64,000 bases of DNA from Candidatus Marinacidobacterales bacterium (GCA_965224085.1 CBDCYI010000009.1:576001-640000), one strand, 5' to 3'; shown: positions 973 through 62,854, counted from the stretch's first letter. Translations and numbers: made by a program. The notes: generated by a model from the sequence alone, not told the origin.

Positions 973-1034
973 CAATGGCATCGCCCGGGCGGGCGAAGGT
1001 AATCGGAGACTGACCCTTTGAGATCTGTGGGAGG

Positions 1035-1200
1035 AAGTAGACTCCGATCGAGTGCAGCCGGGAGTCAAGGCCGAAGGTACGATGGTGCTCAGTGCCCGTT
1101 TGACAGCAAGGTCTGGAGGGTTAGCGGGAGTATCCGTGGTGGCATGTCGCGAGGCATGACCCCGTTCGAAAGAATGTTTTGAATCGCCCCTCTCTCCTGG
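1035..1200 (+). ncRNA. Candidate bridge RNA of the IS110 element
   Basis: About 250-bp non-coding left end with a hairpin (GACTCC/GGAGTC) and two internal-loop modules containing GGTAC + TTTGACAG (target matches) and TCGAAAG (donor right-end match). Boundaries approximate. Confidence 0.6.
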
Positions 1201-1221
1201 TTGCGCCGAAAGGAGCGAGAA

Positions 1222-2610
1222 ATGGCACGTCGCGTCAGGACAAAAAGCAGTCGTCAAGCAAGACGGAAAAAATTGGAGCACGAGCTCGACACGGTAAATC
1301 TAGATGCTGCAGGGATTGATATTGGAGCGGAGTCAATCGTGGCGGCAGTCCCGAAGGGGCGCACTCCTGAGGGCGAACATGTCCGCACGTTTCAGAGCTT
1401 TGTATGCTCGCTGCGAGAGCTGGCCAATTGGCTGAAGGCGTGCGGCGTGTGCACGGTGGCGATGGAGTCGACCGGAGTTTATTGGATTCCACTGTACGAG
1501 TTGTTGGAAGACGAGGGATTTGAAGTCTATCTGGTCGATGCTCGCAAAGTGAAAAACGTATCTGGGCGCAAGTCAGACGTGTCGGATGCGGAGTGGCTGC
1601 AACAGCTGCATACATTCGGGCTACTCCCAAAAACCTTTCGGCCGGAATCGGCGATTTGCGAGCTAAGGGCATACACCCGCCAACGAAGCTCGCTGGTGGA
1701 GTCAGCGGCTCGCCACATTCAGCATATGCACAAAGCGCTCAACCAAATGGGGCTCCAGCTACAACACGTCCTGCGCGACGTGACCGGAGTCACCGGCCTT
1801 GCGATCATCCGAGCGATCTTGAGAGGAGAGCGAGATCCTCGTGACCTAGCAAAACTGAGGCATGAACGTTGCCACAACGATGAGGCCACGATCGCGAAAG
1901 CCTTAGAAGGTAACTATCGGAGCGAGCATGTTTTCGCTCTTCAACAGTCGGTGGAGTTGTACGATTTCTATCAAGAGAAAATGGAAGACTGTGACAAGCG
2001 GATCGAGAGATGCCTGTCCAAATTGGAGACCCGGCCTCAGGACGCTCGGCCTAAGCCGAAACCACGGACACGGCGAGCGCGTAGCGGCAACGGGCCGCGC
2101 TTTCCGCTCGCTGAGTCTCTATTGGGACTCACGGGGGTGGACCTAACCAGGGTTCCCGGCTTAGGTAGCTATGCCGTTCTGCAGCTCGTAGGAGAAACCG
2201 GTTGCGACATGAGCCCGTGGAAAAGTGACAAGCACTTCACCTCATGGCTAGCTCTCGCACCGAATAATAAGGAGTCCGCTGGTCGAATCTTTCGCCGGGC
2301 CACCCCAATGAGCTCCAGTCGTGCTGCAAAACTCTTTCGCCTCGCCGCGTGCGCTGTCCGCAATACCCAAACCGCGCTCGGCGCTTTCTATCGACGAATC
2401 CGATCGCGACGAGGTGCTCCAAAGGCCATCACAGCTACCGCCCGTAAAATAGCGACCATCTACTTCCGCATGCTTGCGACTGGAGAGGAGTTCATTGAGC
2501 TCGGTCAGGACGCCTATGAAAGGCAATACCAGCAACGCCTCCTGAGTAATCTCCGACGCAAAGCTACCCGACTCGGCTTCAGCCTCGTTCCCGATCAATC
2601 CATATCATGA
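1222..2610 (+). CDS. IS110-family DEDD transposase/recombinase
   Basis: AGIDIG, VAMESTGVYW and KSDVSDAEWL (DEDD) motifs; C-terminal ESAG motif; AGGAG SD before ATG 1222. Confidence 0.95.
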   Translation: MARRVRTKSSRQARRKKLEHELDTVNLDAAGIDIGAESIVAAVPKGRTPEGEHVRTFQSFVCSLRELANWLKACGVCTVAMESTGVYWIPLYELLEDEGFEVYLVDARKVKNVSGRKSDVSDAEWLQQLHTFGLLPKTFRPESAICELRAYTRQRSSLVESAARHIQHMHKALNQMGLQLQHVLRDVTGVTGLAIIRAILRGERDPRDLAKLRHERCHNDEATIAKALEGNYRSEHVFALQQSVELYDFYQEKMEDCDKRIERCLSKLETRPQDARPKPKPRTRRARSGNGPRFPLAESLLGLTGVDLTRVPGLGSYAVLQLVGETGCDMSPWKSDKHFTSWLALAPNNKESAGRIFRRATPMSSSRAAKLFRLAACAVRNTQTALGAFYRRIRSRRGAPKAITATARKIATIYFRMLATGEEFIELGQDAYERQYQQRLLSNLRRKATRLGFSLVPDQSIS

Positions 2611-2647
2611 AAAATGCCTTCGGCCGGGAGTGTCAGTCGAAAGTACC

Positions 2648-3284
2648 ATCACGGTTTCCTACGAAGCGATCCGACTTTGGTGCATCAAGTTCGGGCCGGA
2701 ATACGCTCGGCGACTGAAGCGTCGGCAGGGTCGTCTCGGTGACACGTGGCACCTAGACGAGGTCTTCATAAAGATACAAGGTGAACGCCAATACCTCTGG
2801 CGTGCGGTAGACCAAGATGGTGATGTAATTGATATCCTCGTCCAGCCTCGTCGTGATCGGAAAGCCGCGAAACGATTCTTCCGCAAGCTGTTGAAGGGGC
2901 AAGGCCGTCCGCCCTGGCAGCTGGTCACCGACAAACTGAGAAGCTACAGTGCCGCTCACCGCGAGGTCATGCCGTCCGTCGTCCACGACACTGACCAGTA
3001 CAGAAACAACCTAGCCGAAGTCTCGCACGAACCGACGCGACAACGGGAACGACAGATGCGGAAGTTTAAAACTCCTGGGCAGGCGCAACGATTCTTGACC
3101 GTGCACGGACTCGTGCAAAACCTCTTTCGCGTCGGACGGCATTTGTTGCAAGCGCATCATCATCGGGAGCTACGAGACCGCGCTTTCATCGTCTGGCAGG
3201 AGGTAACCTGTGCCGTCCGATGAGAGCAAAGGAAGTCAGCTCGACGCGATAGGTTCGCTCGCTCAACGTCAACTTGACAATATT
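2648..3284 (+). pseudogene. 5'-truncated IS6 transposase (to 3223) with its right IR
   Basis: Nearly identical to 54648-55352 from ITVSYEAIRLWC onward; WHLDEVF and VTDKLRSY motifs; IR TCAACTTGACAATA at 3269-3282. Confidence 0.9.
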
Positions 3285-6007: not shown

Positions 6008-6447
6008 TGTGTGCGAGGGAACTCGTAGAAAGTGAGCAGCTGTTTGCCGGCCTCCTCGATGCTTCGAACGACGGCCGGGGCGAGCGCTTCCCATTTGGTA
6101 ACGAACGGTGCTTGCGCCGTTTGCTGTTGGTGATGTGTAGGCATCCCTTCGCAAAAAAGGCGCTTACGCTCCATTTAGCACGCAGCGAAGGTCGTGAGCG
6201 CTATTTTGGCTGTAATTTAGTGCACCGTGTGTGCGAGGGAACTCGTAGAAAGTGAGCAGCTGTTCGCCGGCCTCCTCGATGCTTCGAACGACGGCCGGGG
6301 CGAGCGCTTCCCATTTGGTAACGAACGGTGCTTGCGCCGTTTGCTGTTGGTGATGTGTAGGCATCCCTTCGCAAAAAAGGCGCTTACGCTCCATTTAGCA
6401 CGCAGCGAAGGTCGTGAGCGCTATTTTGGCTGTAATTTAGTGCACCG
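6008..6447. repeat. Tandem duplication, 2 x 220 bp (IS256-like transposase fragment plus a 122-bp dispersed repeat)
   Basis: 6008-6227 equals 6228-6447 with one visible mismatch; minus strand encodes WEALAPAVVRSIEEAGEQLLTFYEFP. Confidence 0.9.
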
Positions 6448-6606
6448 TAAAGTCTTAGTGTGCAGGCGTTGCCATTTGAGGCTGTCTTTCCAACGAGTGA
6501 AAAAGGCGCGAGCGCCGCGTTCGGTGCGGTAATCCCAGAGTTGCCCGAAGGCCTCCTTGAAAATATAGGCGGTGTTCAGGCGCCGGTTGGCCTGGAGCAA
6601 TTTTTG
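6448..6606 (-). pseudogene. ISL3-family transposase fragment
   Basis: Minus-strand LLQANRRLNTAYIFKEAFGQLWDYRTERGARAFFTRWKDSLKWQRL. Confidence 0.7.
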
Positions 6607-24578: not shown

Positions 24579-24587
24579 GCGCCCCCC

Positions 24588-24760
24588 GTTAGGGTCGAAG
24601 GCTGGCGCGGTCCTCCGTAGGTGTGGCCTATCTGTTTCTCCCCGTTTCCTCTGGGAGTGCCTCACTAGCCACACCGAAAGTCCGTTTCCAACCCCCCCAC
24701 CTCGCGCAGCGTGCGGATTTCCCGCACTGCGCGCTCCTGCACACTTCACGCGAAGGGTTA
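24588..24760 (-). mobile_element. Group II intron 3' remnant (domains V-VI)
   Basis: Minus strand GAGCGCGCAGTGCGGGAAATCCGCACGCTGCG...CGACCCTAAC; homologous to 55475-55628. Confidence 0.75.
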
Positions 24761-34932: not shown

Positions 34933-35495
34933 CCATCTCGAGACGTGATTTCCTGAACGGGGTCGGGGTCGCTCTGACGGGCACCCTCCTCCCCACCTCC
35001 TCGGTCGAAGCGTTTCGCCTCCTGCAGGCGAGCGACGACTACCCTCCCACGCGAACGGGCATGCGCGGCAGCCATCCCGGCTCGTTTGAAATCGCTCACG
35101 ACGTTCGCGACGGGCGAGCCCTCGCCGCCGCGTCGGAGCTTTCCGAGCGTTACGACCTCATCGTTGTCGGCGGCGGTATCAGTGGCTTGTCGGCAGCGCA
35201 TTTCTACCGCAAGCAATTCGGTCCGAGCGCCAAGATCCTTGTCGCGATCGCCGTGAACCGCTGGCCCCACGGCTATGCCTATACCTACAACACGCTGTTC
35301 GATCCCGAGCCGTGGGCTTTTACGACAACATCGGACCGCCCGGCAATCCGCGGGCGTCAGCCGATTGGAAGCCGGATCACGATCGCCAATGCGGACGCAG
35401 CTGCAAGCCCTCACACGCACGCGGCCATCAACGAAGCCTATCGCGCCGTCGCGGAGCTGAAAAGCGCGATTACTAGCGCGCCCCAACCTAATTAG
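34933..35495 (+). pseudogene. Spermidine dehydrogenase-like flavoprotein, start lost and internally deleted
   Basis: ISRRDFLNG...YPPTRTGMRGSHPGSFEIAH...YDLIVVGGGISGL joined in frame to AVNRWPHGYAY...ITIANADA. Confidence 0.8.
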
Positions 35496-37178
35496 TACCC
35501 GTCCTGACAGGTGTAAGAGGTTGAGAAAAAAGGGGTAATCGCAAATTTAGGGCTAGTCTTCTGAGGGGTTGTCGCTTAGAATCGAAGTCGTCAAAAACAA
35601 GAGTCTAAACGACTTAACTCCAAAGGAGACCAGCCCTAAATGCGAAAAACGATCAACCCACAACCAAGCCTTCGCGAGCCCTGGCTGGAGCTGGAGCACG
35701 CACGCGAACTCGAAACGATATCATCGCTGCTCGATGCCCATCCTAAGCTCAATGAGCTGGTACTGCAAGACCTGAGGTCGGTCACCCCATCGGCAGGGAG
35801 CGATGTTGGTCGTGGGGGAATGAGCGCGGAGCAGGTTCTCCGGGCGTTGTTGGTCAAGCAGCTGAATCAGTTCACCTATCGGGAGTTGGCGTTTCACTTG
35901 GCAGACTCTCGAAGCTATCGGACGTTTTGCCAGCTCGGCATCATAGAGCCGAGCCCGTCGAAGTCGACCCTAGCAGCAAACATCAAAGCCGTGAAGTTCG
36001 AAACGCTGGAGAAAATCAACCGAGAGTTGGTGAGTGTTGCCGAGAAGACCGCGATCGAAAAAGGAAGAAAAGTACGAGTGGACTGAACGGTAGTGGAGTC
36101 GAATATTCATTCTCCTACGGACTCCGAGCTTCTTTATGACTGCGTCCGAGTTCTCACTCGCCTCATGTGCCGAACTCGCGAACTGCTGGGTACAGTAGTG
36201 GTCTTCGGCAATCGAACGCGTCGAGCGAAGAGACGTCGACTGGGAGTTCTAAACGCGAAGGATAAGGAACAAAGGCGTCGCGTCTATCGAGATCTACTGA
36301 AGGTGTCGGAAGAAACCTATCGCTCCGCTCAACGCGTTGCAGACCAGTTGGACGAGTCCGGCTTGACCGAGCCGGTGAAGCGAGCGAGTGCGGAGAAGAT
36401 CGCCGCGGATTTTAAGCACTTTCTCGTCCTCACCGAAAAAGTCATCAACCAAACTCGGCGTAGAGTGATTGATGAAGAGCGTGTGCCTGCGGAGGAAAAG
36501 GTCGTTTCGATCTTCGAAGAACACACCGACATTATTCGCAAAGACCGGCGCGAGACTCTCTACGGTCACAAGGTGTGTTTGACTGGTGGCTCGTCCTCGA
36601 TGATTTTGGATTGCGTGATCTTGGATGGGAATCCGTCCGATTCAACTCTCGCGGAAACCATGATCGACCGTCAAGTCGAACTCTACGAACGGGCCCCGCG
36701 CCAGGTTGCCTACGATGGCGCGTTTTCTTCAAAGGCAAACTTGGAAGCCATCAAAGGCAAGGGAGTTGAAGATGTTGCCTTTACCAAGGCTCACTTCGCG
36801 GTGACCGATATGGTCAAGAGTTCCTGGGTCTATCAACGCCTACGGCGATTTCGCTGCGGAATCGAAGGCGTCATTTCGTTCTTGAAACGAGTCTTTGGTC
36901 TCGACCGATGCACATGGCGCTCATTGCCTTCTTTCAAATCCTACGTATGGAGTTCCATCATCACCTGCAACCTGTTGGTAATGGCAAGGCACCTATTACG
37001 ATAATAATGATTGCTCTTACTGCGTTTATAGCCATGGATTGCTGACGATTCGCCTCTCGTTTCGTCCAAGATTTTCATTCGCTTCCGAGCCTACGAGGTG
37101 CCGACTGAAAACGTATAATACCCACATCTTCGATAGGCCTCTCGTACACCACAAGTTATGGTGTTTCTGGACAGGAAC
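35495..37178 (+). mobile_element. IS element (ISNCY/IS5-like DDE), copy 1
   Basis: Imperfect IRs GTACCCGTCCTGA / TCTGGACAGGAAC; 6-bp TSD TAATTA. Confidence 0.9.
35640..37004 (+). pseudogene. Transposase with a premature stop at 36084-36086
   Basis: Identical protein to 40377-41741 except Cys TGC changed to TGA. Confidence 0.92.
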
Positions 37179-37181
37179 TAA

Positions 37182-37904
37182 TTAAGACCCGAAGCGGAGC
37201 TTGTTCTCCACCGACAACACACCGTGCGTTTGCCGGATGATGGACGCCGCTTTTTGCTTGGCCATTTGGTTCCGTACCACGCCCGTCAGGAGGACCCGCG
37301 AGCGATTGACGATGATGCGGATCGGAGGGTGCGCCATCCCCGCGTAGTCGGAGAACATCGAGTCACGGTAGAGGCGATTGGCGAGCGTTTGCCGCAACCG
37401 GCTGTCTTGCAAGGAATTCGGGAGCACCTCGATCTGGTTGCTGAACTCTTGAATGCCGAGGACGTTGTGCATCCTCTTTTCGATGCCCTCTTTCTTGAAA
37501 GGTTCCGTGACGAACCCCATGATGACGATGCTCCCATCCTTCACGATCGCGTTCGCATCGTCGAAGACGGTTAGGTTCCCGTACCTCCGGATCTGTTTGA
37601 CGACTTCCTGGCCGAGCTTGTTGGCGCTCTCCGCCTGAGCGATCTCGATATCGGCTTCGACGTCCTCGATTTCGGGCTGGGCGAGCGCGACCTCGACAGC
37701 CTTGTTCTTCGCGAACACGTTTCGGACTTGGCCGGTGAGAATCGCGGTGGCTCCCTCGAGCTCAACGTTGAGTTTGATCTTTTCCTTCTTGAAGTCTTTT
37801 TCGATCTGTTTCAGGATCTCGCCCGGGCTACGCTGCGCAACCAGTGACGCAGGCAAAGCGAGGAATAGCAGGGCGACCGTAAGCCTTCTGACCTTGTTCT
37901 TCAT
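37182..37904 (-). CDS. BON-domain secreted protein
   Basis: Signal peptide; repeated BON motifs (ILTGQV, VLLTGVV, GVLSVENKL). Confidence 0.88.
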   Translation of the reverse strand: MKNKVRRLTVALLFLALPASLVAQRSPGEILKQIEKDFKKEKIKLNVELEGATAILTGQVRNVFAKNKAVEVALAQPEIEDVEADIEIAQAESANKLGQEVVKQIRRYGNLTVFDDANAIVKDGSIVIMGFVTEPFKKEGIEKRMHNVLGIQEFSNQIEVLPNSLQDSRLRQTLANRLYRDSMFSDYAGMAHPPIRIIVNRSRVLLTGVVRNQMAKQKAASIIRQTHGVLSVENKLRFGS

Positions 37905-40144: not shown

Positions 40145-40202
40145 TAGAGCAGCGACAGTCGAAAGGTTCGCGCCGTCCGGGCGAGGCGATTCGGTCTACC
40201 TA

Positions 40203-41886
40203 GTTCCTGTCCAGAAACACCATAACTTGTGGTGTACGAGAGGCCTATCGAAGATGTGGGTATTATACGTTTTCAGTCGGCACCTCGTAGGCTCGGAAGC
40301 GAATGAAAATCTTGGACGAAACGAGAGGCGAATCGTCAGCAATCCATGGCTATAAACGCAGTAAGAGTAATCATTATTATCGTAATAGGTGCCTTGCCAT
40401 TACCAACAGGTTGCAGGTGATGATGGAACTCCATACGTAGGATTTGAAAGAAGGCAATGAGCGCCATGTGCATCGGTCGAGACCAAAGACTCGTTTCAAG
40501 AACGAAATGACGCCTTCGATTCCGCAGCGAAATCGCCGTAGGCGTTGATAGACCCAGGAACTCTTGACCATATCGGTCACCGCGAAGTGAGCCTTGGTAA
40601 AGGCAACATCTTCAACTCCCTTGCCTTTGATGGCTTCCAAGTTTGCCTTTGAAGAAAACGCGCCATCGTAGGCAACCTGGCGCGGGGCCCGTTCGTAGAG
40701 TTCGACTTGACGGTCGATCATGGTTTCCGCGAGAGTTGAATCGGACGGATTCCCATCCAAGATCACGCAATCCAAAATCATCGAGGACGAGCCACCAGTC
40801 AAACACACCTTGTGACCGTAGAGAGTCTCGCGCCGGTCTTTGCGAATAATGTCGGTGTGTTCTTCGAAGATCGAAACGACCTTTTCCTCCGCAGGCACAC
40901 GCTCTTCATCAATCACTCTACGCCGAGTTTGGTTGATGACTTTTTCGGTGAGGACGAGAAAGTGCTTAAAATCCGCGGCGATCTTCTCCGCACTCGCTCG
41001 CTTCACCGGCTCGGTCAAGCCGGACTCGTCCAACTGGTCTGCAACGCGTTGAGCGGAGCGATAGGTTTCTTCCGACACCTTCAGTAGATCTCGATAGACG
41101 CGACGCCTTTGTTCCTTATCCTTCGCGTTTAGAACTCCCAGTCGACGTCTCTTCGCTCGACGCGTTCGATTGCCGAAGACCACTACTGTACCCAGCAGTT
41201 CGCGAGTTCGGCACATGAGGCGAGTGAGAACTCGGACGCAGTCATAAAGAAGCTCGGAGTCCGTAGGAGAATGAATATTCGACTCCACTACCGTGCAGTC
41301 CACTCGTACTTTTCTTCCTTTTTCGATCGCGGTCTTCTCGGCAACACTCACCAACTCTCGGTTGATTTTCTCCAGCGTTTCGAACTTCACGGCTTTGATG
41401 TTTGCTGCTAGGGTCGACTTCGACGGGCTCGGCTCTATGATGCCGAGCTGGCAAAACGTCCGATAGCTTCGAGAGTCTGCCAAGTGAAACGCCAGCTCCC
41501 GATAGGTGAACTGATTCAGCTGCTTGACCAACAACGCCCGGAGAACCTGCTCCGCGCTCATTCCCCCACGACCAACATCGCTCCCTGCCGATGGGGTGAC
41601 CGACCTCAGGTCTTGCAGTACCAGCTCATTGAGCTTAGGATGGGCATCGAGCAGCGATGATATCGTTTCGAGCTCGCGTGCGTGCTCCAGCTCCAGCCAG
41701 GGCTCGCGAAGGCTTGGTTGTGGGTTGATCGTTTTTCGCATTTAGGGCTGGTCTCCTTTGGAGTTAAGTCGTTTAGAATCTGCGTTTTTGTCGACTCGAT
41801 ACTAAACGACACTCCCTCAGAAGGCTAGCCCTAAATTTGCGATTACCCCTTTTTTCTCAACCTCTTACACCTGTCAGGACGGGTAC
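40203..41886 (-). mobile_element. IS element (ISNCY/IS5-like DDE), copy 2
   Basis: Inverted near-identical copy of 35495-37178; 6-bp TSD TACCTA. Confidence 0.9.
40377..41741 (-). CDS. Intact DDE transposase (454 aa)
   Basis: VRVDCTVVESNI, AYDGAF and RCGIEGVISFLKR motifs. Confidence 0.92.
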   Translation of the reverse strand: MRKTINPQPSLREPWLELEHARELETISSLLDAHPKLNELVLQDLRSVTPSAGSDVGRGGMSAEQVLRALLVKQLNQFTYRELAFHLADSRSYRTFCQLGIIEPSPSKSTLAANIKAVKFETLEKINRELVSVAEKTAIEKGRKVRVDCTVVESNIHSPTDSELLYDCVRVLTRLMCRTRELLGTVVVFGNRTRRAKRRRLGVLNAKDKEQRRRVYRDLLKVSEETYRSAQRVADQLDESGLTEPVKRASAEKIAADFKHFLVLTEKVINQTRRRVIDEERVPAEEKVVSIFEEHTDIIRKDRRETLYGHKVCLTGGSSSMILDCVILDGNPSDSTLAETMIDRQVELYERAPRQVAYDGAFSSKANLEAIKGKGVEDVAFTKAHFAVTDMVKSSWVYQRLRRFRCGIEGVISFLKRVFGLDRCTWRSLPSFKSYVWSSIITCNLLVMARHLLR

Positions 41887-41893
41887 TACCTAG

Positions 41894-51083: not shown

Positions 51084-52170
51084 GGCGTTGTTGCACGGCC
51101 CGGAGCAAATCGCTGACCTCCCTGTGCCGGTCGGAGAGTCACCCGGCGCAGTAAGTATCGGGCATGCCGAGCGCGGTCATCTTGTTGAGTATCTCGCACC
51201 CAATTCTGTGTTCAACTCGTTGCCTCGCCAACGTTCGAGCCCGCATCTCGGGCCCCATGATCGCCTTGTAACGATAGACCGCGTTCTCCACCATGCTTCG
51301 CTCGGTGCAGCCTGAGAGCTTGTACCATTCACGTCGGCCGTGTCTTTCGATGGCACGAATATGGCGGTCGCGTTCCCGCATGGCGGTGTTCGAATTCTGA
51401 CTGAGCGTGGCGTTTCGTTGCGGCGGAATCACCACGCGCGTCCTTCGTCCAGGGCTGTGCGCTTCGATGGCTTCGTAGACCGCTTCCTTGTCGTATGCAC
51501 TGTCCGCCGCCACCGACGCTATAGGTGCTTGAATCTGTGTTAGCAAAGGGGGGACTCGCGTTGCGTCGCGAGCTCGTGACGCCGTCAGTTCGGACGCAAC
51601 AATGTTGCCGGTCTTGCGATCAACGGCGATGTGCAACTTGCGCCAGGCGCGCTGCTTTGGCGGTTTGCGGGTGGTTCCAACATGAATCCTCAAGCCCGTG
51701 CTATCGATCATCAGGTGGATTGGTTGATTGCTTGCGGCTTTCCCAATCCGCAGCTTCTTGCGGAGCAGCCTCGACCGCCGACACAATGTCGAGTAGTCCG
51801 GGATCTCGATACACAGCCGGAGAAGCGAGGCGATCGAGTGCAAGAAGCCTTCGGTTTGGCGGTAGGCAAGCTTGTACACCATCCGGACAACCAGGCCCGT
51901 TTCAATCGCCATCTCTGAATAGACCCGTTGACCGCCAGGCTTACCGCTCTTGTCGGCCTTCCAGTTCGCGATTGCCTCCTCGTCAAACCAGACCGTCAAA
52001 TCGCCCCGGCGCCGCAGCCCTTCGTTGTATTCCGCCCAGTTGGAAACGTGGTACTTCTTCTGCTTCGCGTGCTTGTACTGGCTGCGCTTGGGATACTTCA
52101 TGGTCGAACATTACCTCGGCCACCACCATAGGTAGATTTCGCGCTCAGCCAAGAGCGGTGCAACAACGCC
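51084..52170 (-). mobile_element. IS5 family (IS903-like) element, type A
   Basis: IRs GGCGTTGTTGCAC / GTGCAACAACGCC; no TSD seen. Confidence 0.9.
51139..52101 (-). CDS. IS5-family transposase
   Basis: NWAEYNEGLRRRGDLTVW, IDSTGL, WRKLH and ADSAYD motifs. Confidence 0.93.
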   Translation of the reverse strand: MKYPKRSQYKHAKQKKYHVSNWAEYNEGLRRRGDLTVWFDEEAIANWKADKSGKPGGQRVYSEMAIETGLVVRMVYKLAYRQTEGFLHSIASLLRLCIEIPDYSTLCRRSRLLRKKLRIGKAASNQPIHLMIDSTGLRIHVGTTRKPPKQRAWRKLHIAVDRKTGNIVASELTASRARDATRVPPLLTQIQAPIASVAADSAYDKEAVYEAIEAHSPGRRTRVVIPPQRNATLSQNSNTAMRERDRHIRAIERHGRREWYKLSGCTERSMVENAVYRYKAIMGPEMRARTLARQRVEHRIGCEILNKMTALGMPDTYCAG

Positions 52171-54425: not shown

Positions 54426-54647
54426 TAGCCCGGGCCCGCGGGTGCTTCCGCTATTAAGTGTTGGGAGTATGGTGCTAAGGCTTTTGGTTACAACAAATTA
54501 CAGCCCAATTAGCGCTCGTTACCTTTGCTGCGCGCCAAATCGGGCGTAAGCGCATTTCTTGCAAGAGGATGCATGCCATCACCAACGGTATTGTCAAGTT
54601 GACGTTGAGCGAGCGAACCTATTGCGTCGAGCTGACTTCCTTTGCTC

Positions 54648-55352
54648 TCATCGGACGGCACAGGTTACCTCCTGCCAGACGATGAAAGCGCGGTCTCGTA
54701 GCTCCCGATGATGATGCGCTTGCAACAAATGCCGTCCGACGCGAAAGAGGTTTTGCACGAGTCCATGCACGGTCAAGAATCGTTGCGCCTGCCCAGGAGC
54801 TTTAAACTTCCGCATCTGTCGTTCCCGTTGTCGCGTCGGTTCGTGCGAGACTTCGGCTAGGTTGTTTCTGTACTGGTCAGTGTCGTGGACGACGGACGGC
54901 ATGACCTCGCGGTGAGCGGCACTGTAGCTTCTCAGTTTGTCGGTGACCAGCTGCCAGGGCGGACGGCCTTGCCCTTTCAACAGCTTGCGGAAGAATCGTT
55001 TGGCGGCTTTCTGATCACGGCGAGGCTGGACGAGGATATCAATCACATCACCATCTTGGTCTACCGCGCGCCAGAGGTATTGGCGTTCGCCTTGTATCTT
55101 TATGAAGACCTCGTCCAGGAGCCACGTGTCACCAAGGCGACCCTGCCGACGCTTCAGTCGCCGAGCGTATTCCGGCCCGAACTTGATGCACCAAAGTCGG
55201 ATCGCTTCGTAGGAAACCGTGATGCCTCGCTGAGCAAGCAGCTCTTCGACGTTTCGAAAGCTCACGCAGAATCGGTGGTAGAGCCAGACGGCGTGGCTGA
55301 TGATTTCCGGTGGAAATCGATAGCCGTGGTAGCTTGGCGCATCGGTCTTCAT
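54648..55352 (-). CDS. IS6-family transposase (234 aa)
   Basis: YRFPPEIISHAVWLY, LDEVF, LWRAVDQDG, VTDKL, NNLAEVSH motifs. Confidence 0.95.
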   Translation of the reverse strand: MKTDAPSYHGYRFPPEIISHAVWLYHRFCVSFRNVEELLAQRGITVSYEAIRLWCIKFGPEYARRLKRRQGRLGDTWLLDEVFIKIQGERQYLWRAVDQDGDVIDILVQPRRDQKAAKRFFRKLLKGQGRPPWQLVTDKLRSYSAAHREVMPSVVHDTDQYRNNLAEVSHEPTRQRERQMRKFKAPGQAQRFLTVHGLVQNLFRVGRHLLQAHHHRELRDRAFIVWQEVTCAVR

Positions 55353-55386
55353 TGGACCATTCTGTCAGTCACCAGCTCAATTTGAC

Positions 55387-55454
55387 AGCAATGGCACCGC
55401 CCGTGCGGGCGGAGGTCATCGGGGAGTGACCGAAATCGTTCGTTCACTCGAAAG
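55387..55454 (+). mobile_element. Miniature non-autonomous IS110 derivative in the IS6 IR
   Basis: AG cores at 55387-55388 and 55453-55454; first 43 bp are 37/43 identical to the IS110 left end (973-1015); last 11 bp are 10/11 identical to its right end. Confidence 0.8.
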
Positions 55455-55474
55455 TACCCTTCGCGGGAAGTGTG

Positions 55475-55628
55475 CAGGAGCGTGTAGTGCGGGAAAGCCG
55501 CACGCTGCGTGCGATGTGGCGGGGGCTGGAAACGGACTTACGGTGCGGCTAGTGAGGCACTCCCACAGGAAACGGGGAGAAACAGATAGGCCGCGCCTAC
55601 GGAGCACCGCGCCAGCCCTCGACCCTAC
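55475..55628 (+). mobile_element. Group II intron 3' remnant (domains V-VI)
   Basis: GAGCGTGTAGTGCGGGAAAGCCGCACGCTGCGTGCGATGTGGCGGG...CGACCCTAC; 5' part removed by IS6. Confidence 0.78.
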
Positions 55629-55752
55629 CGGGAGCGTAAGCGCCTCTTTTGCAAAGGGATGCGTACACATCACCAACAGTAAACAGCGCAAGCACCAGCA
55701 CCGGCCATCGTGCCTCTCTCCTATCCTAGGAGGGCACCGTTCACGATTTTAC

Positions 55753-56063: not shown

Positions 56064-57346
56064 ATGACTCATATCGCTCGGCTTCTATTGTGCTCGACCC
56101 TCTTTCTCTCACCCGTCGGCTCGACGCTCGCTGCAGCGGCTGATGAGCAACTCGGCGTGTTGGTCGTGGCTCATGGCTCGACGGCGGCGTGGAATGCCAA
56201 CGTCGAAGCCGTGGGGACGATTATTCAACAACACATGCCATCTAAAGCGGCGTACCTGATGGGTGCGAAGAACCGCACACCGCAGGAGGCGTACGACGAA
56301 CTGGTCGCGGCTGGTGTCCAGCGGATTGTCGTCGTGCCGCTCCTGGTGTCTTCCTACAACTCGCACTACGAACAGGTCCGCTTCATTGGCCGCCTTCGCG
56401 ACGATTACCCGGGCTCCGAACGGATGAAACTCACGCCGCTGCACGGGCCTGCTGACGTTGTCGACGTTACGCCGGCGCTTGATGCAGATCCGATCCTCGC
56501 TGACATCTTGTCCGACCGGGCGCGTGCGCTCAGTCGTGACCCATCCACGGAAAGCCTCGTCATCGTGGCACACGGGCCGAACAGCGCCGCAGACGCAGAC
56601 CGGTGGATGGACGTGATCCGAGAACTTGGTGTCCAAATCCTGTCCCTCGTGCCGTTTAAGGAGGTCGACGTCCGCCTCTTGCGGGACGATGCGCCCACAC
56701 CGGTCAAAGACCAGGCGCTCGCGGAGCTCAGACACTCGGTGGCCAACCGTTCAGCGTCGGGGCGGGTCGTCGTCGTGCCGCTCTTGCTCGGGCCGGGACG
56801 CGTCGTCGACCAGATACCCAATGTACTCACTGGATTGGATTACCTCTGGGACGGTCGACCCGTGCTCCCGGACAGCCGGATCGCTGACTGGGTCATGTTC
56901 CAGGTCGAGCATGTATCGGCGCAGCAAGATGCAGCCAGCCGGCAGTCGACAGATGATTTGCTGACTTTCTTCGATTCCGTGACCGTGACCGCGACGCTCC
57001 GGCCGTCGCCGGTACGGGAGATCCCCGGCATGGTGACGGTCGTCGACAGCGAGGTCATTCAGGCGAGGCTATTCGAGAACCTGTCTGATCTCGTCAAGTA
57101 CGAACCCGGGGTGTACATCGAAAACAATATGACCCGTCTTGGTCTCAACGGATTCAACATCCGCGGCATCGGAAGGGATCGCGTGATGACGCAGGTGGAC
57201 GGCATTCAGACGTCGGAGCAGTTCGACTTCGGGCCTTTCAGCGTGCATCAGCTGGCGCTCGATCTCGATGCGTTGAAATCCGTCGAGATCGTGCGGAGTT
57301 CCAACTCGGCGCTCTACGGCAGCGATGCCCTCGGCGGCGTGGTGTT
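56064..57346 (+). pseudogene. Secreted CbiX/SirB-type chelatase fused to a TonB-dependent receptor plug; truncated by IS5
   Basis: GAGGAG SD, signal peptide, LVVAHGS...IVVVPLLVS...SH, IVAHGP...VVVVPLLL; then DSVTVTAT, YEPGV, FNIRGIG, VEIVRSSNSALYGSDALGGVV. Confidence 0.85.
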
Positions 57347-58431
57347 GCCTTGGTGCACAACTCCGATAGAGGCCGAGAGCTCGCTTGGCCCCGACTCCCA
57401 TCACCCGATCATCTCGCTATCAGGCATCCCGAGCGCCGTCATGGTGTTGAGAATCTTGCACCCGATCCTTGCCTCGACTCTCTGTGCCGCCAACCCTCTC
57501 GCTCGCATCGCTGAGCCCACGATAGCCTTGTAGCGATGGAACGTTGTCTCGACTTTGCTCCGTTTGCTGTAGCCCGATTCTGTGTGCCACTTTCGTTTGC
57601 CGAGCCGAGCTTGTGCTGCAATGTTGCGATTGCGCTGTCGGCTGCTCGCCGGCCCCGATGCGAGCAGGGCGCCCTTGCGCGGCGGTATCAGCACCCTCGG
57701 CGAGCGATGAGCGCTGTGATTCTCGATTGCCTCATAGACGCCGCTGGCGTCGTATGCGGTGTCAGCTCTGGCCGATGAGATGGGACTGTCGCTCTGTCCG
57801 ACAAGCGATGCAACCCGCGATGAATCGCGGGCTCTTTTGCTCGTCAGCTCGCCGGCGACGACTTCGCCAGTCTGCTCGTCGACACACAGATGGAGCTTGC
57901 GATAGTCCCTGCTCTTTTGTGCTCTGCGCAGCTGGCCGGCGTGGACAGCGAGACCGCTGCTGTCGATCAAGATGTGCAACGGCGTCTTCTGCTTGTCTTG
58001 GTAGAAGGGGACCTTACCCAGCTTCGCCTTGCGCCTCGAAATCGTGGTGTGATCGGGCACATCATTGTCTAGCTTCATCAGAGCGAACAACGACCGCAGC
58101 AATCCCTCGCTCTGCCTAGATGACAGATGAAACACCATGCCCAGGGTGACAGCCGTCTCGATGGCGTGGTTCGAGTACTTGCGTTGACGGCCCGGTTTCC
58201 TCCTCCTCGGCCGGGGCGCGTCCCAGTTCACAAGCTTGCCGGCGGTGAGCGAGATCCAGACGGTCAGGCTCCCACGGTTGCGTAGACCCGCCTCATATTC
58301 ACGCCAATTCCTCACGCGATAGGCCTTCTTCACATACTTCCGCTGAGTGCGTTTGAAAATGCTCATGGGGAACCTCGAATCCGTGAGTAAAGGACAATTG
58401 TGGACCGAGATCGCGAGTTGTGCACCAAGGC
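57347..58431 (-). mobile_element. IS5 family element, type B
   Basis: IRs GCCTTGGTGCACAACTC / GAGTTGTGCACCAAGGC. Confidence 0.9.
57401..58366 (-). CDS. IS5-family transposase
   Basis: YRVRNWREYEAGLRNRGSLTVW, IDSSGL, RKLH and ADTAYD motifs. Confidence 0.93.
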   Translation of the reverse strand: MSIFKRTQRKYVKKAYRVRNWREYEAGLRNRGSLTVWISLTAGKLVNWDAPRPRRRKPGRQRKYSNHAIETAVTLGMVFHLSSRQSEGLLRSLFALMKLDNDVPDHTTISRRKAKLGKVPFYQDKQKTPLHILIDSSGLAVHAGQLRRAQKSRDYRKLHLCVDEQTGEVVAGELTSKRARDSSRVASLVGQSDSPISSARADTAYDASGVYEAIENHSAHRSPRVLIPPRKGALLASGPASSRQRNRNIAAQARLGKRKWHTESGYSKRSKVETTFHRYKAIVGSAMRARGLAAQRVEARIGCKILNTMTALGMPDSEMIG

Positions 58432-58674
58432 AACACATTGATGATGCTGTGGATCTACGTTAACGAGGTCAACAAGATGCTCGCATGGAACAACTTTAAC
58501 CTCCTGAATTACCTACCGCCATTGGCCTTCTTCATAAGCAGGGATGGTGTTGACAATTAGGTGGTGCGGACTCCAATTATTTCCGTTTCGTCCATTAACC
58601 CCAATGGTTGGTGTATGACCAACGCATAGTGTAGGGTAGAAGGTGTATATTTTATTCTACCTGGAGAGATGGTG

Positions 58675-59740: not shown

Positions 59741-60557
59741 GGCGTTGTTGCACCGCTCTTGGCTGAGCGCGAAATCTACCCTATGGTGGTGGCCGAGGTA
59801 ATGTTCGACCATGAAGTATCCCAAGCGCAGCCAGTACAAACACGCGAAACAGAAGAAGTACCACGTTTCCAACTGGGCGGAATACAACGAAGGGCTGCGC
59901 CGCCGGGGCGATTTGACGGTTTGGTTTGACGAGGAGGCAATCGCGAACTGGAAGGCCGACAAGAGCGGTAAGCTTGGCGGTCAACGGGTCTATTCAGAGA
60001 TGGCGATTGAAACGGGCCTGGTTGTCCGGATGGTGTACAAGCTTGCCTACCGCCAAACCGAAGGCTTCTTGCACTCGATCGCCTCGCTTCTCCGGCTGTG
60101 TATCGAGATCCCGGACTACTCGACGTTGTGTCGGCGGTCGAGGCTGCTCCGCAAGAAGCTGCGGATTCGGAAAGCCGCAAGCAATCAACCAATCCACCTG
60201 ATGATCGATAGCACGGGCTTGAGGATTCATGTTGGAACCACCCGCAAACCGCCAAAGCAGCGCGCCTGGCGCAAGTTGCACATCGCCGTTGATCGCAAGA
60301 CCGGCAACATTGTTGCGTCCGAACTGACGGTGTCACGAGCTCGCGACGCAACGCGAGTCCCCCCTTTGCTAACACAGATTCAAGCACCTATAGCGTCGGT
60401 GGCGGCGGACAGTGCATACGACAAGGAAGCGGTCTACGAAGCCATCGAAGCGCACAGCCCTGAACGAAGGACGCGCGTGGTGATTCCGCCGCAACGAAAC
60501 GCCACGCTCAGTCAGAATTCGAACACCGCAATGCGGGAACGCGACCGCCATATTCGT
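59741..60557 (+). mobile_element. IS5 type A element with 3'-truncated transposase (from 59811)
   Basis: Near-identical to 51084-52170; cut by the type B element. Confidence 0.9.
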
Positions 60558-61642
60558 GCCTTGGTGCACAACTCGCGATTTCGGTCCACAATTGTCCTTT
60601 ACTCACGGATTCGAGGTTCCCCATGAGCATTTTCAAACGCACTCAGCGGAAGTATGTGAAGAAGGCCTATCGCGTGAGGAATTGGCGTGAATATGAGGCG
60701 GGTCTACGCAATCGCGGGAGCCTGACCGTCTGGATCTCGCTCACCGCCGGCAAGCTTGTGAACTGGGACGCGCCCCGGCCGAGGAGGAGGAAACCGGGCC
60801 GTCAACGCAAGTACTCGAACCACGCCATCGAGACGGCTGTCACCCTGGGCATGGTGTTTCATCTGTCATCTAGGCAGAGCGAGGGATTGCTGCGGTCGTT
60901 GTTCGCTCTGATGAAGCTAGACAATGATGTGCCCGATCACACCACGATCTCGAGGCGCAAGGCGAAGCTGGATAAGGTCCCCTTCTACCAAGACAAGCAG
61001 AAGACGCCGTTGCACATCTTGATCGACAGCAGCGGTCTCGCTGTCCACGCCGGCCAGCTGCGCAGAGCACCAAATAGCAGGGACTATCGCAAGCTCCATC
61101 TGTGTGTCGACGAGCAGACGGGCGAAGTCGTCGCCGGCGAGCTGACGAGCAAAAGAGCCCGCGATTCATCGCAGGTTGCATCGCTTGTCGGACAGAGCGA
61201 CAGTCCCATCTCATCGGCCAGAGCTGACACCGCATACGACGCCAGCGGCGTCTATGAGGCAATCGAGAATCACAGCGCTCATCGCTCGCCGAGGGTGCTG
61301 ATACCGCCGCGCAAGGGCGCCCAGCTCGCATCGGGGCCGGCGAGCAGCCGACAGCGCAATCGCAACATTGCAGCACAAGCTCGGCTCGGCAAACGAAAGT
61401 GGCACACAGAATCGGGCTACAGCAAACGGAGCAAAGTCGAGACAACGTTCCATCGCTACAAGGCTATCGTGGGCTCAGCGATGCGAGCGAGAGGGTTGGC
61501 GGCACAAAGAGTCGAGGCAAGGATCGGGTGCAAGATTCTCAACACGATGACGGCGCTCGGGATGCCTGATAGCGAGATGATCGGATGATGGGAGTCGGGG
61601 CCAAGCGAGCTCTCGGCCTCTATCGGAGTTGTGCACCAAGGC
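60558..61642 (+). mobile_element. IS5 family element, type B
   Basis: Same IRs as 57347-58431. Confidence 0.9.
60623..61588 (+). CDS. IS5-family transposase
   Basis: Near-identical to 57401-58366. Confidence 0.93.
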   Translation: MSIFKRTQRKYVKKAYRVRNWREYEAGLRNRGSLTVWISLTAGKLVNWDAPRPRRRKPGRQRKYSNHAIETAVTLGMVFHLSSRQSEGLLRSLFALMKLDNDVPDHTTISRRKAKLDKVPFYQDKQKTPLHILIDSSGLAVHAGQLRRAPNSRDYRKLHLCVDEQTGEVVAGELTSKRARDSSQVASLVGQSDSPISSARADTAYDASGVYEAIENHSAHRSPRVLIPPRKGAQLASGPASSRQRNRNIAAQARLGKRKWHTESGYSKRSKVETTFHRYKAIVGSAMRARGLAAQRVEARIGCKILNTMTALGMPDSEMIG

Positions 61643-62854
61643 AGAGTCGTTCCGGTTCTTGGGTCAAACGGACGCGTGGGTTTTCATAATGCAGCGAACA
61701 CAAAGGCTCCTTGCATCGTGATCGGACGAAAGGGATCGTTCGGGAAGGTAAACTATTCTGAACGCCCTGTGTTTGCAATCGATACAACTTTCTTTGTGGA
61801 TAACCGTTTTTCATCAGCTCATATTCGGTGGCTTTTTTTCCTCTTTGGTTGGCTTCGTCTGGATGAGGTAACGAGAGACTCAGCGGTACCTGGTCTCGAC
61901 CGGGAGGATGCTTACCAGAAGCTCATAGTAGTGCCTCCTTTTTCAGAGCAAGCCGCCATCGTCCGCTACCTCGACCATGCGGATCGTCGCATCCAGCGCT
62001 ACATCCGCGCCAAGCAGAAGCTGATCACGCTGCTGGAGGAGCAGAAGCAGGCCATCATCCAGCGCGCCGTGACGCGCGGCCTCGACCCCAACGTCCGCCT
62101 CAAGCCCTCCGGCGTGGAGTGGCTGGGGAAAGTGCCGACGCATTGGGAAAGGCGAAGACTGAAGATTCTTCTCCGACCGGTTGACCGACGATCTGCCACT
62201 GGAGCGGAGACACTCCTGTCGTTGCGACGAGACCACGGAATCGTTATTTACGCTGAGCACTTCGCCAGACCTTCACAGAGCAGGTCCTTGGTGGGGTTTA
62301 AGCTCGTTGCCGTGGGTCAGCTAGTCGTCAACCGTCTCCAGGCTAACAATGGGTTGGTCTTTTGCTCGGGTATTAACGGGCTCGTGAGCCCTGACTACTC
62401 TGTGTTCGAGATGAGAAAACCACTCCAGATGCAGTACCTGAGCGATCTTCTTAGAACTTCTCGCTATCGTTCGCACTTCCGGCGAGAGTCCACAGGGCTC
62501 GGTACTGGGACCGCAGGTTTTCTACGACTTTATGACGACAAATTTCTTGAGACGGAAGTGTTCTTGCCGCCAGTACAGGAGCAGATTCTGATATCCAACT
62601 CACTCGCAAACGATATTGCCAAAGTCAAGCGTCTGATGGAACAACAGCAGCGGCAGCTACAGTTCTTTAATGAGTTCCGAACTCGGCTGATTACCGATGT
62701 CGTTACCGGCAAGCTCGATGTGCGGGAGGCGGCCTCCCGGCTGCCGGACGAGGTCGAGGAACCGGAGCCGCTAGACGAGACCGACGCCCTCACCGACGGC
62801 GAGGAAGAGCCCACCGACGATCGCGACGCCGCCCCCGAAGAGGCCGCGGTGTGA
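61643..62854 (+). pseudogene. hsdS: Type I RM specificity subunit, N-terminally truncated by IS5
   Basis: IGRKGSFG, PPFSEQAAIVRYLD, KPSGVEWLGKVPTHWE, RLITDVVTGKLDVR motifs. Confidence 0.9.

Follow-up and report, generated by a model that had tools for sequence, protein, structure and literature searches.

The window, the 64,000-nt stretch of Candidatus Marinacidobacterales DNA that was analyzed, contains a 66-nt element (referred to as the mini), which lies in a terminal inverted repeat of an IS6-family insertion sequence, and a full-length IS110-family element (ISx). The features are as follows.

857-972, + strand: IS6-type MITE of about 120 bp (GGTATTGTCAAGTTGAGG...CCTCAACTTGACAG), with ISx in its right repeat and its TACC tip at 2644-2647
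973-2643, + strand: ISx, 1671 bp with one core AG, comprising left end, bridge RNA, recombinase gene (1222-2610), and right end
981-996, + strand: ISx left-end hairpin TCGCCC-GGGC-GGGCGA
1008-1014, + strand: ISx sub-terminal repeat, left arm GACTGAC
1053-1205, + strand: ISx bridge RNA, predicted from the consensus fold of seven elements
1074-1082 and 1100-1109, + strand: target loop of the bridge RNA, 5' strand AAGGUACGA and 3' strand UUGACAG+CAA, respectively
1128-1136 and 1166-1172, + strand: donor loop of the bridge RNA, 5' strand GAGUAUCCG and 3' strand UCGAAAG, respectively
2632-2638, + strand: ISx sub-terminal repeat, right arm GTCAGTC, followed by GAA and AG
54587-55388, - strand: IS6-family element, 806 bp when uninterrupted, with its transposase-proximal terminal repeat split by the mini; transposase at 54648-55352 (PF13610)
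55387-55388, + strand: core dinucleotide AG, left copy, closing the left target TTGAC-AG
55389-55454, + strand: mini element, 66 nt including the right-hand core AG (55453-55454), subtype A with hairpin loop GTGC; one of 19 full-length copies in the genome
55397-55412, + strand: GC hairpin CCGCCC-GTGC-GGGCGG, element positions 9-24, from folding and a compensated pair relative to ISx
55413-55423, + strand: linker, element positions 25-35, homologous to the left-end site of the clade that the donor-loop 5' guide appears to copy
55424-55429, + strand: sub-terminal inverted repeat of the mini, left arm GAGTGA, element positions 36-41
55444-55449, + strand: sub-terminal inverted repeat of the mini, right arm TCACTC, element positions 56-61, followed by GAA and the core AG
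55455-55458, + strand: TACC, the right target, which is the outermost 4 nt of the IS6 terminal inverted repeat (GGTA on the opposite strand)

At the mini, the window reads TTTGAC-AG-[CAATGG...CACTCGAA-AG]-TACC (in 55380-55460, ...ATTTGAC-AG-CAATGGCACCGCCCGTGCGGGCGGAGGTCATCGGGGAGTGACCGAAATCGTTCGTTCACTCGAA-AG-TACC...). An earlier note on this DNA had described a guide-less element of about 66 bp without an ORF at this place, and the string is present as described; the mini contains no ORF, no bridge-RNA loop, and no recombinase. It is built from the first 43 nt and the last 11 nt of an ISx-like element, with a 12-nt filler between them that is not found in ISx. The left module comprises the 8-nt terminus CAATGGCA, the 16-nt GC hairpin, the 11-nt linker, and a sub-terminal arm of 6 to 7 nt, and the right module consists of the second repeat arm, GAA, and the core AG. 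A consensus scan of 55200-55600 and 850-1300 detected no sigma-70-type promoter or terminator in the mini; one terminator-like site (55586-55600) lies outside it. Rfam gave no match at gathering score anywhere in the window and, within 900-1300 at E values up to 10, only two matches at chance level.

The IS6 element carries the repeats GGTATTGTCAAGTTGA at its far end and GGTACTGTCAAATTGAG at its transposase-proximal end, and the mini lies within the proximal repeat, 6 nt from the tip. The earlier note had assigned the mini and ISx to the same IS6 inverted-repeat position. The ISx copy in the window is located in the right repeat of a MITE and not of an IS6 element, whereas three other ISx copies in the genome do lie in the 806-bp IS6, at the repeat end that also holds the mini. 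The MITE that holds ISx abuts a truncated IS6 (2647-3282).

The full IS110 element reported previously is present as well, although it begins at 973 instead of 965. Its 462-amino-acid protein matches PF01548 (E = 5.7e-25) and PF02371 (E = 2.3e-8) and is thereby predicted to have the DEDD RuvC-like and Tnp domains that define an IS110 recombinase. The match to the IS621 chains in the PDB is weak (E = 1.2e-5); it aligns the GID and E-x-TG motifs as well as the MS(K/S) stretch.

Other insertion sequences are dense in the window. Two further short repeat families flank the IS6 element with its mini (55456-55632 and 24585-24758; 55631-55696, 6107-6172, and 6327-6392; and 54540-54586), one of which brackets it as direct repeats ending in ATCACCAAC; the summed word depth of these families in public contigs is hundreds of times that of adjoining unique DNA. 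Besides, there is a 221-bp tandem direct repeat at 6008-6448 (two copies, 99.5% alike), and three repeat pairs of 0.8 to 1.7 kb, about 99% alike and mostly inverted, are found at 35493-37196 and 40187-41888, at 51352-52170 and 59741-60560, and at 57346-58432 and 60557-61643. Part of the stretch is contained in an RNA run labeled sponge metagenome.

Ends, copies, and origin of the mini

The mini differs from ISx at 6 of 43 positions in the left end (86% identity) and at one position in the right end, where 10 of 11 nt match. The terminal 8 nt on the left and 7 nt on the right (TCGAA with the core AG) are alike, which gives identity across 15 nt at the crossover, TCGAA-AG-CAATGGCA, and the nearest flanking differences, at positions -6 and +9, belong to the two compensated pairs. 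Indeed, four of the seven changes make up these pairs, namely, T9>C with A24>G at the foot of the hairpin stem (TCGCCC/GGGCGA to CCGCCC/GGGCGG), and C38>G with G>C in its right-end partner (sub-terminal repeat GACTGA/TCAGTC to GAGTGA/TCACTC). In simulations that placed seven random substitutions in 54 nt with 12 pairs, at least two compensated pairs were obtained with P = 8e-4 or, if no pair was allowed to be broken, with P = 1.8e-4. Thus, the two pairing-preserving changes pointed out in the earlier note are real, with P of about 2e-4 to 8e-4 by simulation.

As single-stranded DNA, the 66-mer is predicted to form two hairpins, and it folds better than dinucleotide shuffles on both the top strand (z = -3.0; 2 of 300 shuffles equally good) and the bottom strand (z = -4.0; 0 of 300). 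Common polymorphisms among 60 mini loci were found at loop positions 16 and 18 (8 loci each) and at linker position 35 (6 loci), with polymorphism in positions 36-66 not assessable since part of the loci had been picked by an exact match to that segment.

Six relatives of ISx, with 47 to 55% protein identity to it and with ends fixed from several copies each, have an end layout in common with ISx and the mini: core, left extension of 32 to 36 nt, and arm of 6 to 9 nt at one end, and matching arm, 3 to 4 nt, and core at the other. The arms are AGAAAC(T)/(A)GTTTCT in the six relatives; ISx has GACTGAC/GTCAGTC, and the mini has GAGTGA/TCACTC. In the six relatives, the stretch that corresponds to the hairpin is CG-rich and would permit one, but the left extensions of the seven elements, ISx included, fold no better than dinucleotide shuffles (Fisher combined P = 0.64). 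A hairpin is likely in ISx and the mini, whereas a clade-wide one is unproven, and we make no claim of a conserved hairpin beyond these two elements because of this result. Accordingly, among the cis-elements that the mini had been said to mark, the sub-terminal repeat, its spacing, and the guide-matched linker stand, whereas the hairpin is marked by one compensated pair only.

Some relatives of ISx occur as head-to-tail tandem copies (loci L085/L103, G033:C1:721250-727193; locus L094 in G211), and the sequence before their left junction resembles their own right end (...GTTTCTTAGGAG). Such right-end-like sequence would favor insertion beside a resident copy.

The earlier note had named a single occurrence of the mini as the mark of a deletion scar, but the mini proved to be multi-copy. 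In its own genome (6.87 Mb, 12 contigs), BLAST detected 19 full-length copies with 95.5 to 100% identity, two with a common 5' deletion, one decayed, and one partial, and also matched positions 1-43 of the mini to ten ISx left ends (86%). Among 61 Candidatus Marinacidobacterales MAGs, with G000 being the genome of the window, the mini core (one mismatch allowed) was found in 100 copies in nine genomes of six genera and two families (G000, 22; G002, 17; G003, 12; G010, 25; G012, 13; G016, 6; G021, 2; G025, 2; and G033, 1). The copies are 94 to 100% identical across the six genera by BLAST, and haplotype A accounts for 8 of 60 distinct loci. On the single contig of G010, 6 of the 25 minis are in forward and 19 in reverse orientation, clustered at 0.1 to 1.1, 3.1 to 3.6, and 7.8 to 8.1 Mb; the orientation of a mini is set by its host repeat.

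The ISx copies in the genome of the window are 99.9 to 100% alike. Among the 61 genomes, the left end of ISx is confined to G000, with 10 copies, and G021, with 6, so that seven of the nine mini-bearing genomes lack it in intact form. The protein is 100% identical in G021, truncated in G003, and fragmentary in G002, with no match above 51% in G010 or 42% in G012; the best IS110 relative in G010, the genome with 25 minis, shows 51% identity, and neither its ends nor its target are related. Across 401 genomes sampled from the class, we found a 100% match and next relatives of at most 55%. A full-length parent with mini-type ends was found in none of the 61 related genomes, in neither of two metagenome scans (no matches), and in none of 400 other genomes of the phylum.

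Between two families of the order, the amino acid sequence of the ISx recombinase shows 100% identity (window 973-2643 versus six G021 loci, e.g., L013). Together with the 94 to 100% identity of minis across six genera, this points to a very recent horizontal spread.

All mini copies have one internal junction and filler in common, as well as the seven differences from ISx, so that the deletion occurred once and its product then spread. The other possibility, that each mini is a scar left by internal deletion of a full element on the spot, would account for a composition of left- and right-end sequence of an ISx-like element. However, independent deletions would give differing junctions and ISx-type bases, as the resident ISx copies are nearly invariant, which is contradicted by the single filler and the single set of seven differences. 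We therefore regard independent scars as scarcely credible, and the in-place deletion that the earlier note had allowed for is excluded for the window copy.

The mini is MITE-like, being short, noncoding, and present in many copies and having ends like those of an autonomous element. It is not a textbook MITE, since the inverted repeat is sub-terminal instead of terminal and there is no target-site duplication beyond the shared core AG, as is expected for the IS110 family.

Bridge RNA and target site

The consensus fold of the bridge RNA, made from ISx and its six relatives, has 41 pairs, 13 of which show compensatory changes, and its architecture is an outer stem around two stem/internal-loop modules. 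In the predicted target loop, GGUAC within AAGGUACGA on the 5' strand is complementary to G-TACC, and UUGACAG+CAA on the 3' strand equals the left target, the core, and the first 3 nt of the element. The 3' strand of the donor loop, UCGAAAG, is exactly the right end of ISx plus the core. Across the RNAs of the clade, exact 7-mers were found for the left target in six of seven elements and for the right end in all seven. The 11-mer target read from the ISx RNA is the site of all minis, TTGAC-AG-TACC; the loop strands UUGACAG and GGUAC thus match the target as those of an IS110 bridge RNA should.

Consistent with this predicted target, TTGACAG precedes the mini at all of 58 distinct loci, which come from G000 and six or more other genomes, and the following four positions are T in 58, A in 55, C in 56, and C in 58 of them. 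Beyond the target the flanks are variable, with 35 distinct far-left keys among the 58 loci. In the own genome, there are four left contexts, and every mini is followed by TACC and then unique DNA; TACC also follows all 12 ISx right ends. The left neighbor is the 806-bp IS6 for 13 of the 19 minis, a second kind of repeat end for 4, and two further kinds for 2, one of these being the MITE type that hosts ISx in the window. The left context of this MITE likewise carries minis at G000 C5:445433 and in other genomes. In G010, an IS6-type element whose transposase is 85% identical to that of the window has a mini in each terminal repeat (L012, G010:C1:290421-293503, positions 650-1578).

Counting exact motifs in the genome, we found 10 empty sites (TTGACAGTACC), 18 mini left junctions (the 19th copy has a variant terminus), 10 ISx left junctions, 23 mini right ends with TACC, and 12 ISx right ends with TACC. 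Thus, 28 left junctions are occupied by the mini or ISx versus 10 exact 11-mer sites that are empty. A variant with TT as the core, TTGACAATACC, is present at 45 sites, none of which is occupied; three IS6 copies carry it empty, and it is also found at the opposite end of IS6. Comparison of empty (TTGACAGTACC) and occupied (TTGACAG[...]AGTACC) sites indicates no target duplication, with the core at both junctions. Around the IS6 flanks, no target duplications were seen by eye; in any case, such duplications would not reveal the order in which IS6 and the mini arrived.

The site bears on a further explanation, namely, that the mini is a REP/REPIN-like repeat or an IS6 regulatory hairpin moved by another enzyme, which ISx has captured or mimics. 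A 66-nt, two-hairpin, high-copy element with very high conservation across two families would fit this, as would the fact that in 13 of 19 copies the IS6 transposase gene starts 37 nt downstream of it. On the other hand, the insertion site is exactly the bridge-RNA target of ISx with the ISx core, the layout (35-nt left extension, arm, 3-nt right extension, and core) is that of the whole IS110 clade, and the mini was devoid of sigma-70-type promoters and terminators in the consensus scan. REP/REPIN repeats are palindromic and linked to Y1 (RAYT) transposases, and for the mini both the insertion site and the homology of the ends point to IS110. We consider a repeat of such other origin very improbable, and an IS110 derivative is the reading pursued below.

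The donor loop seems to contain a second guide. In 13 elements of the clade, which have the layout of the ends in common, 7 nt of its 5' strand have the same sense as, and nearly the same sequence as, positions 24-34 of the element's own left end. For a discovery set, self pairs agreed at 37 of 49 positions, compared with a mean of 23.5 for derangements, and the true assignment was the single best of 5040; the register had been chosen after data inspection, and the test was then fixed before six further elements were used. These were selected from 20 candidate loci, 9 with the scaffold and 6 of those with at most two junction mismatches, with the left junction placed by the element's own guide. 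In this validation set, self pairs matched at 30 of 42 positions, again the single best of 720 assignments, and one element matched at all 7 positions in the register that had been predicted. In ISx, the guide GUAUCCG agrees with the left end of the element at 5 of 7 positions and with the mini linker at 4 of 7. The regions concerned are 1128-1136 versus 997-1007 in the window and the corresponding ones at loci L015, L089, L096, L104, L109, L115, L081, L083, L084, L092, L093, and L095. A clade-wide 5' guide in the donor loop that copies a site 24 to 34 nt inside the left end, a site kept by the mini, is thus proposed here as a new feature, although other IS110 guides may show something comparable.

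A right donor guide like that of IS621, complementary to AG-CAATGG, was found in neither ISx nor its relatives. Furthermore, self pairs between the 3' tail of the bridge RNA and the CG-rich left end were weakly above non-self pairs, scores as high being reached in 216 of 5040 assignments for the complement and in 78 of 5040 for the same sense. Both donor guides would read one strand, because RNA of top-strand sense pairs with the bottom strand.

Probable mobility of the mini and a possible mechanism

In the genome of the window, 29 IS6 copies are longer than 700 bp. Their proximal repeat is empty in eight, empty with the TT-core variant in three, and occupied by ISx in two, by mini A in three, by a decayed mini A in one, by mini B in six, by mini C in four, and by a deletion derivative in two. 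The commonest IS6 haplotype occurs in five states, i.e., empty and with ISx, mini A (decayed), B, or C. A divergent IS6 lineage, whose nearest relatives have the TT variant and are empty, holds minis A and B too. We detected no linkage between mini state and host-IS6 haplotype, and the 1.5 kb around 5 of the 19 minis are free of IS6 transposase genes.

Since left contexts are diverse and one IS6 haplotype can be empty, with ISx, or with each subtype, the minis were in all likelihood inserted independently many times, in trans. This pattern implies repeated site-specific insertion and is not expected from clonal spread of one IS6::mini unit. Hence, transposition in trans, beyond passive copying, is inferred from sequence comparison to have made the mini copies.

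Some copying as a passenger has occurred, as four loci have both flanks in common. An inverted IS6 pair in G000 (C5:1101085-1101894 and C5:1103639-1104448, 1.75 kb apart) has one deletion in common, by which 39 nt at the end of IS6 and 18 nt at the start of the mini were lost; both copies end exactly at TACC, so that the composite was copied as a unit. Pure passenger copying would mean that the mini is immobile and entered an IS6-type repeat once or a few times, with all later copies owed to transposition of the host elements, be they IS6, their MITEs, or larger repeats, or to their transfer between genomes. In addition to the common flanks and the inverted pair, it would be in keeping with mini-rich genomes that lack ISx and with the fact that the IS6 tip TACC stays outside the mini, which makes a composite end possible on paper. 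However, there are at least four unrelated left contexts in the genome and 35 far-left keys in 58 loci, identical mini haplotypes reside in different IS6 lineages, and one IS6 haplotype is found in every state; moreover, the mini splits the IS6 repeat 6 nt from the tip, which should disable that end. Copying exclusively as a passenger is therefore judged improbable.

Direct traces of excision were sought in two ways. The Logan contigs of 4 public runs out of 24 contained neither a joint that passes over the mini nor one between its two ends; public contigs break at repeats, so this speaks neither for nor against excision. A junction of right end to left end, as in a tandem or a circle, is absent from the genome and from all mini loci collected.

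Taken together, the 66-bp segment is most probably one copy of a family of miniature non-autonomous IS110-family derivatives that consist of the donor-end module only and are mobilized in trans. Mobilization by a bridge recombinase, as the earlier note had supposed for a non-autonomous element, fits the many copies, the one junction, the site encoded by ISx, and the identity at the crossover, and we hold an IS110-type complex to be its probable agent with good confidence. ISx itself may be the present mobilizer, and may equally well not be.

In the mechanism that we propose, a complex of recombinase and bridge RNA, supplied in trans by ISx or by a lost sister of ISx, would recognize the ends of the mini. 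The donor loop would bind these ends and the target loop an empty repeat tip, strand exchange would take place at AG, and the mini would be inserted into TTGAC-AG-TACC, i.e., the tip of the terminal inverted repeats of IS6-family elements and their MITEs. With 66 bp between the crossover points, a circle or synapse of double-stranded DNA would be under heavy strain because of the stiffness of DNA. For this reason, the mini might travel as a single strand, an intermediate that we regard as possible, if somewhat unlikely. According to the cited parts of two preprints, IS110 elements mainly excise one strand as a circle or transfer the strand directly (10.64898/2026.08.31.748434; 10.1101/2025.10.25.684509). 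Such a single-stranded route would remove the size problem and give the paired arms and the hairpin a role.

A more detailed and more doubtful model can be drawn from the two donor guides. Both are of top-strand sense, one copying the right end plus the core and the other the site 24 to 34 nt inside the left end, so that the donor of the clade would be read on one strand. Pairing of the sub-terminal arms with each other would bring the two guide sites side by side, and the guide-DNA helices, the DNA repeat stem, and the RNA hairpin could then form a four-way junction. The mini would be this module of guide sites and arms closed by a 12-nt loop, moving as a single-stranded circle or by direct strand transfer. 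If true, it would be natural in vivo evidence for the single-strand (copy-out) pathway of the two preprints.

Comparison with known systems

Bridge recombinases are in development as programmable genome editors, and their donor-end needs have been mapped mainly on IS621. The mini family is a natural deletion experiment with about 100 repeats, in which 54 nt of ends and a 12-nt loop were enough to persist and multiply, and it outlines what seems to be the minimum of DNA required by such a recombinase to move something. It also points to features absent from the IS621 description, as far as the cited parts of that description go: sub-terminal repeat arms that pair, a left extension fixed at about 35 nt, and a guide-matched site far from the crossover. 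The size of the mini bears on the question of double- versus single-stranded circles in the IS110 family, as raised in the portions cited of the preprints 10.64898/2026.08.31.748434 and 10.1101/2025.10.25.684509. Besides, the family is a parasite of other mobile elements (a "parasite of parasites"), and it is relevant to research on both bridge recombinases and nested mobile elements.

As described in the cited sections on IS621 (PMC11208160; PMC13626964), ISx resembles that element in its DEDD/Tnp recombinase, in a guide RNA upstream of the gene with a target and a donor loop, in left guides of top-strand sense that include the core, in an 11-nt natural target, and in a core dinucleotide at both junctions without target duplication. 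On the same partial basis, it differs from IS621 in several respects. The core on the recombinase-sense strand is AG in ISx and CT in IS621; the top-strand complement comes first in the target loop of ISx; the ISx clade has a sub-terminal repeat of 6 to 9 nt and a left extension of 32 to 36 nt; and no guide complementary to the top strand beside the core was found in ISx, whose 5' donor guide appears instead to copy the site 24 to 34 nt inside the left end. The ISx protein, with 462 amino acids, matches IS621 weakly.

Sub-terminal repeats characterize the IS1111 group, and in the IS110 group the donor is flanked by short repeats of this kind, according to the relevant parts of two sources (PMC11187229; PMC11208160). 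As characterized there, the IS1111 group is like ISx in its sub-terminal inverted repeats, in a 3-nt extension past the right arm, and in a top-strand complement before the bottom-strand match in the guide, whereas ISx has its noncoding region upstream of the gene, a left extension of about 35 nt versus 7, and arms of 6 to 9 bp versus 11 to 13 bp. We considered and rejected membership of ISx in the IS1111 group: the repeat of 7 bp (6 to 9 in the relatives) fits the range of 7 to 17 bp, but the guide region lies upstream and not downstream, and the left extension is 32 to 36 nt.

IS110-family elements aimed at the 38-bp repeats of the Tn3 family likewise target the terminal repeat of another mobile element, which in the present case is the tip of IS6-family elements. 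We know of no miniature derivative of these Tn3-repeat-targeting elements. In the literature searched, we found no report of a natural IS110 derivative without recombinase and guide, or of an IS110 element aimed at IS6 repeats. The largest survey of natural IS110 sizes covers, in the part cited, only loci with an IS110 domain, the smallest elements being about 800 bp (10.64898/2026.08.14.744561), and it is thus blind to minis by design. An ISfinder MITE labeled ISNme5_IS110 is mentioned elsewhere (PMC11602168).

A natural MITE-like relative is MITEPpu9, which belongs with the IS110-family element ISPpu9 of Pseudomonas putida (PMC12288879). As presented in the cited part of that study, MITEPpu9 and the mini are both short and without a recombinase, have IS110-like ends, and are present in more copies than the master element, and movement of MITEPpu9 with transposase in trans has likewise been proposed. 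In contrast, MITEPpu9 carries the sRNA gene ssr9 and targets REP sequences, whereas the mini is 66 nt long, has no RNA gene, and targets IS6-type terminal repeats.

Laboratory mini-IS constructs that consist of ends only move when transposase and guide are supplied, as reported in the cited part of PMC11187229. Their ends, of 84 bp and 71 bp, enclose several hundred base pairs of cargo, whereas those of the natural mini are 43 and 11 nt in an element of 66 nt in total. The mini is a MITE-like, guide-less miniature of a bridge-RNA element.
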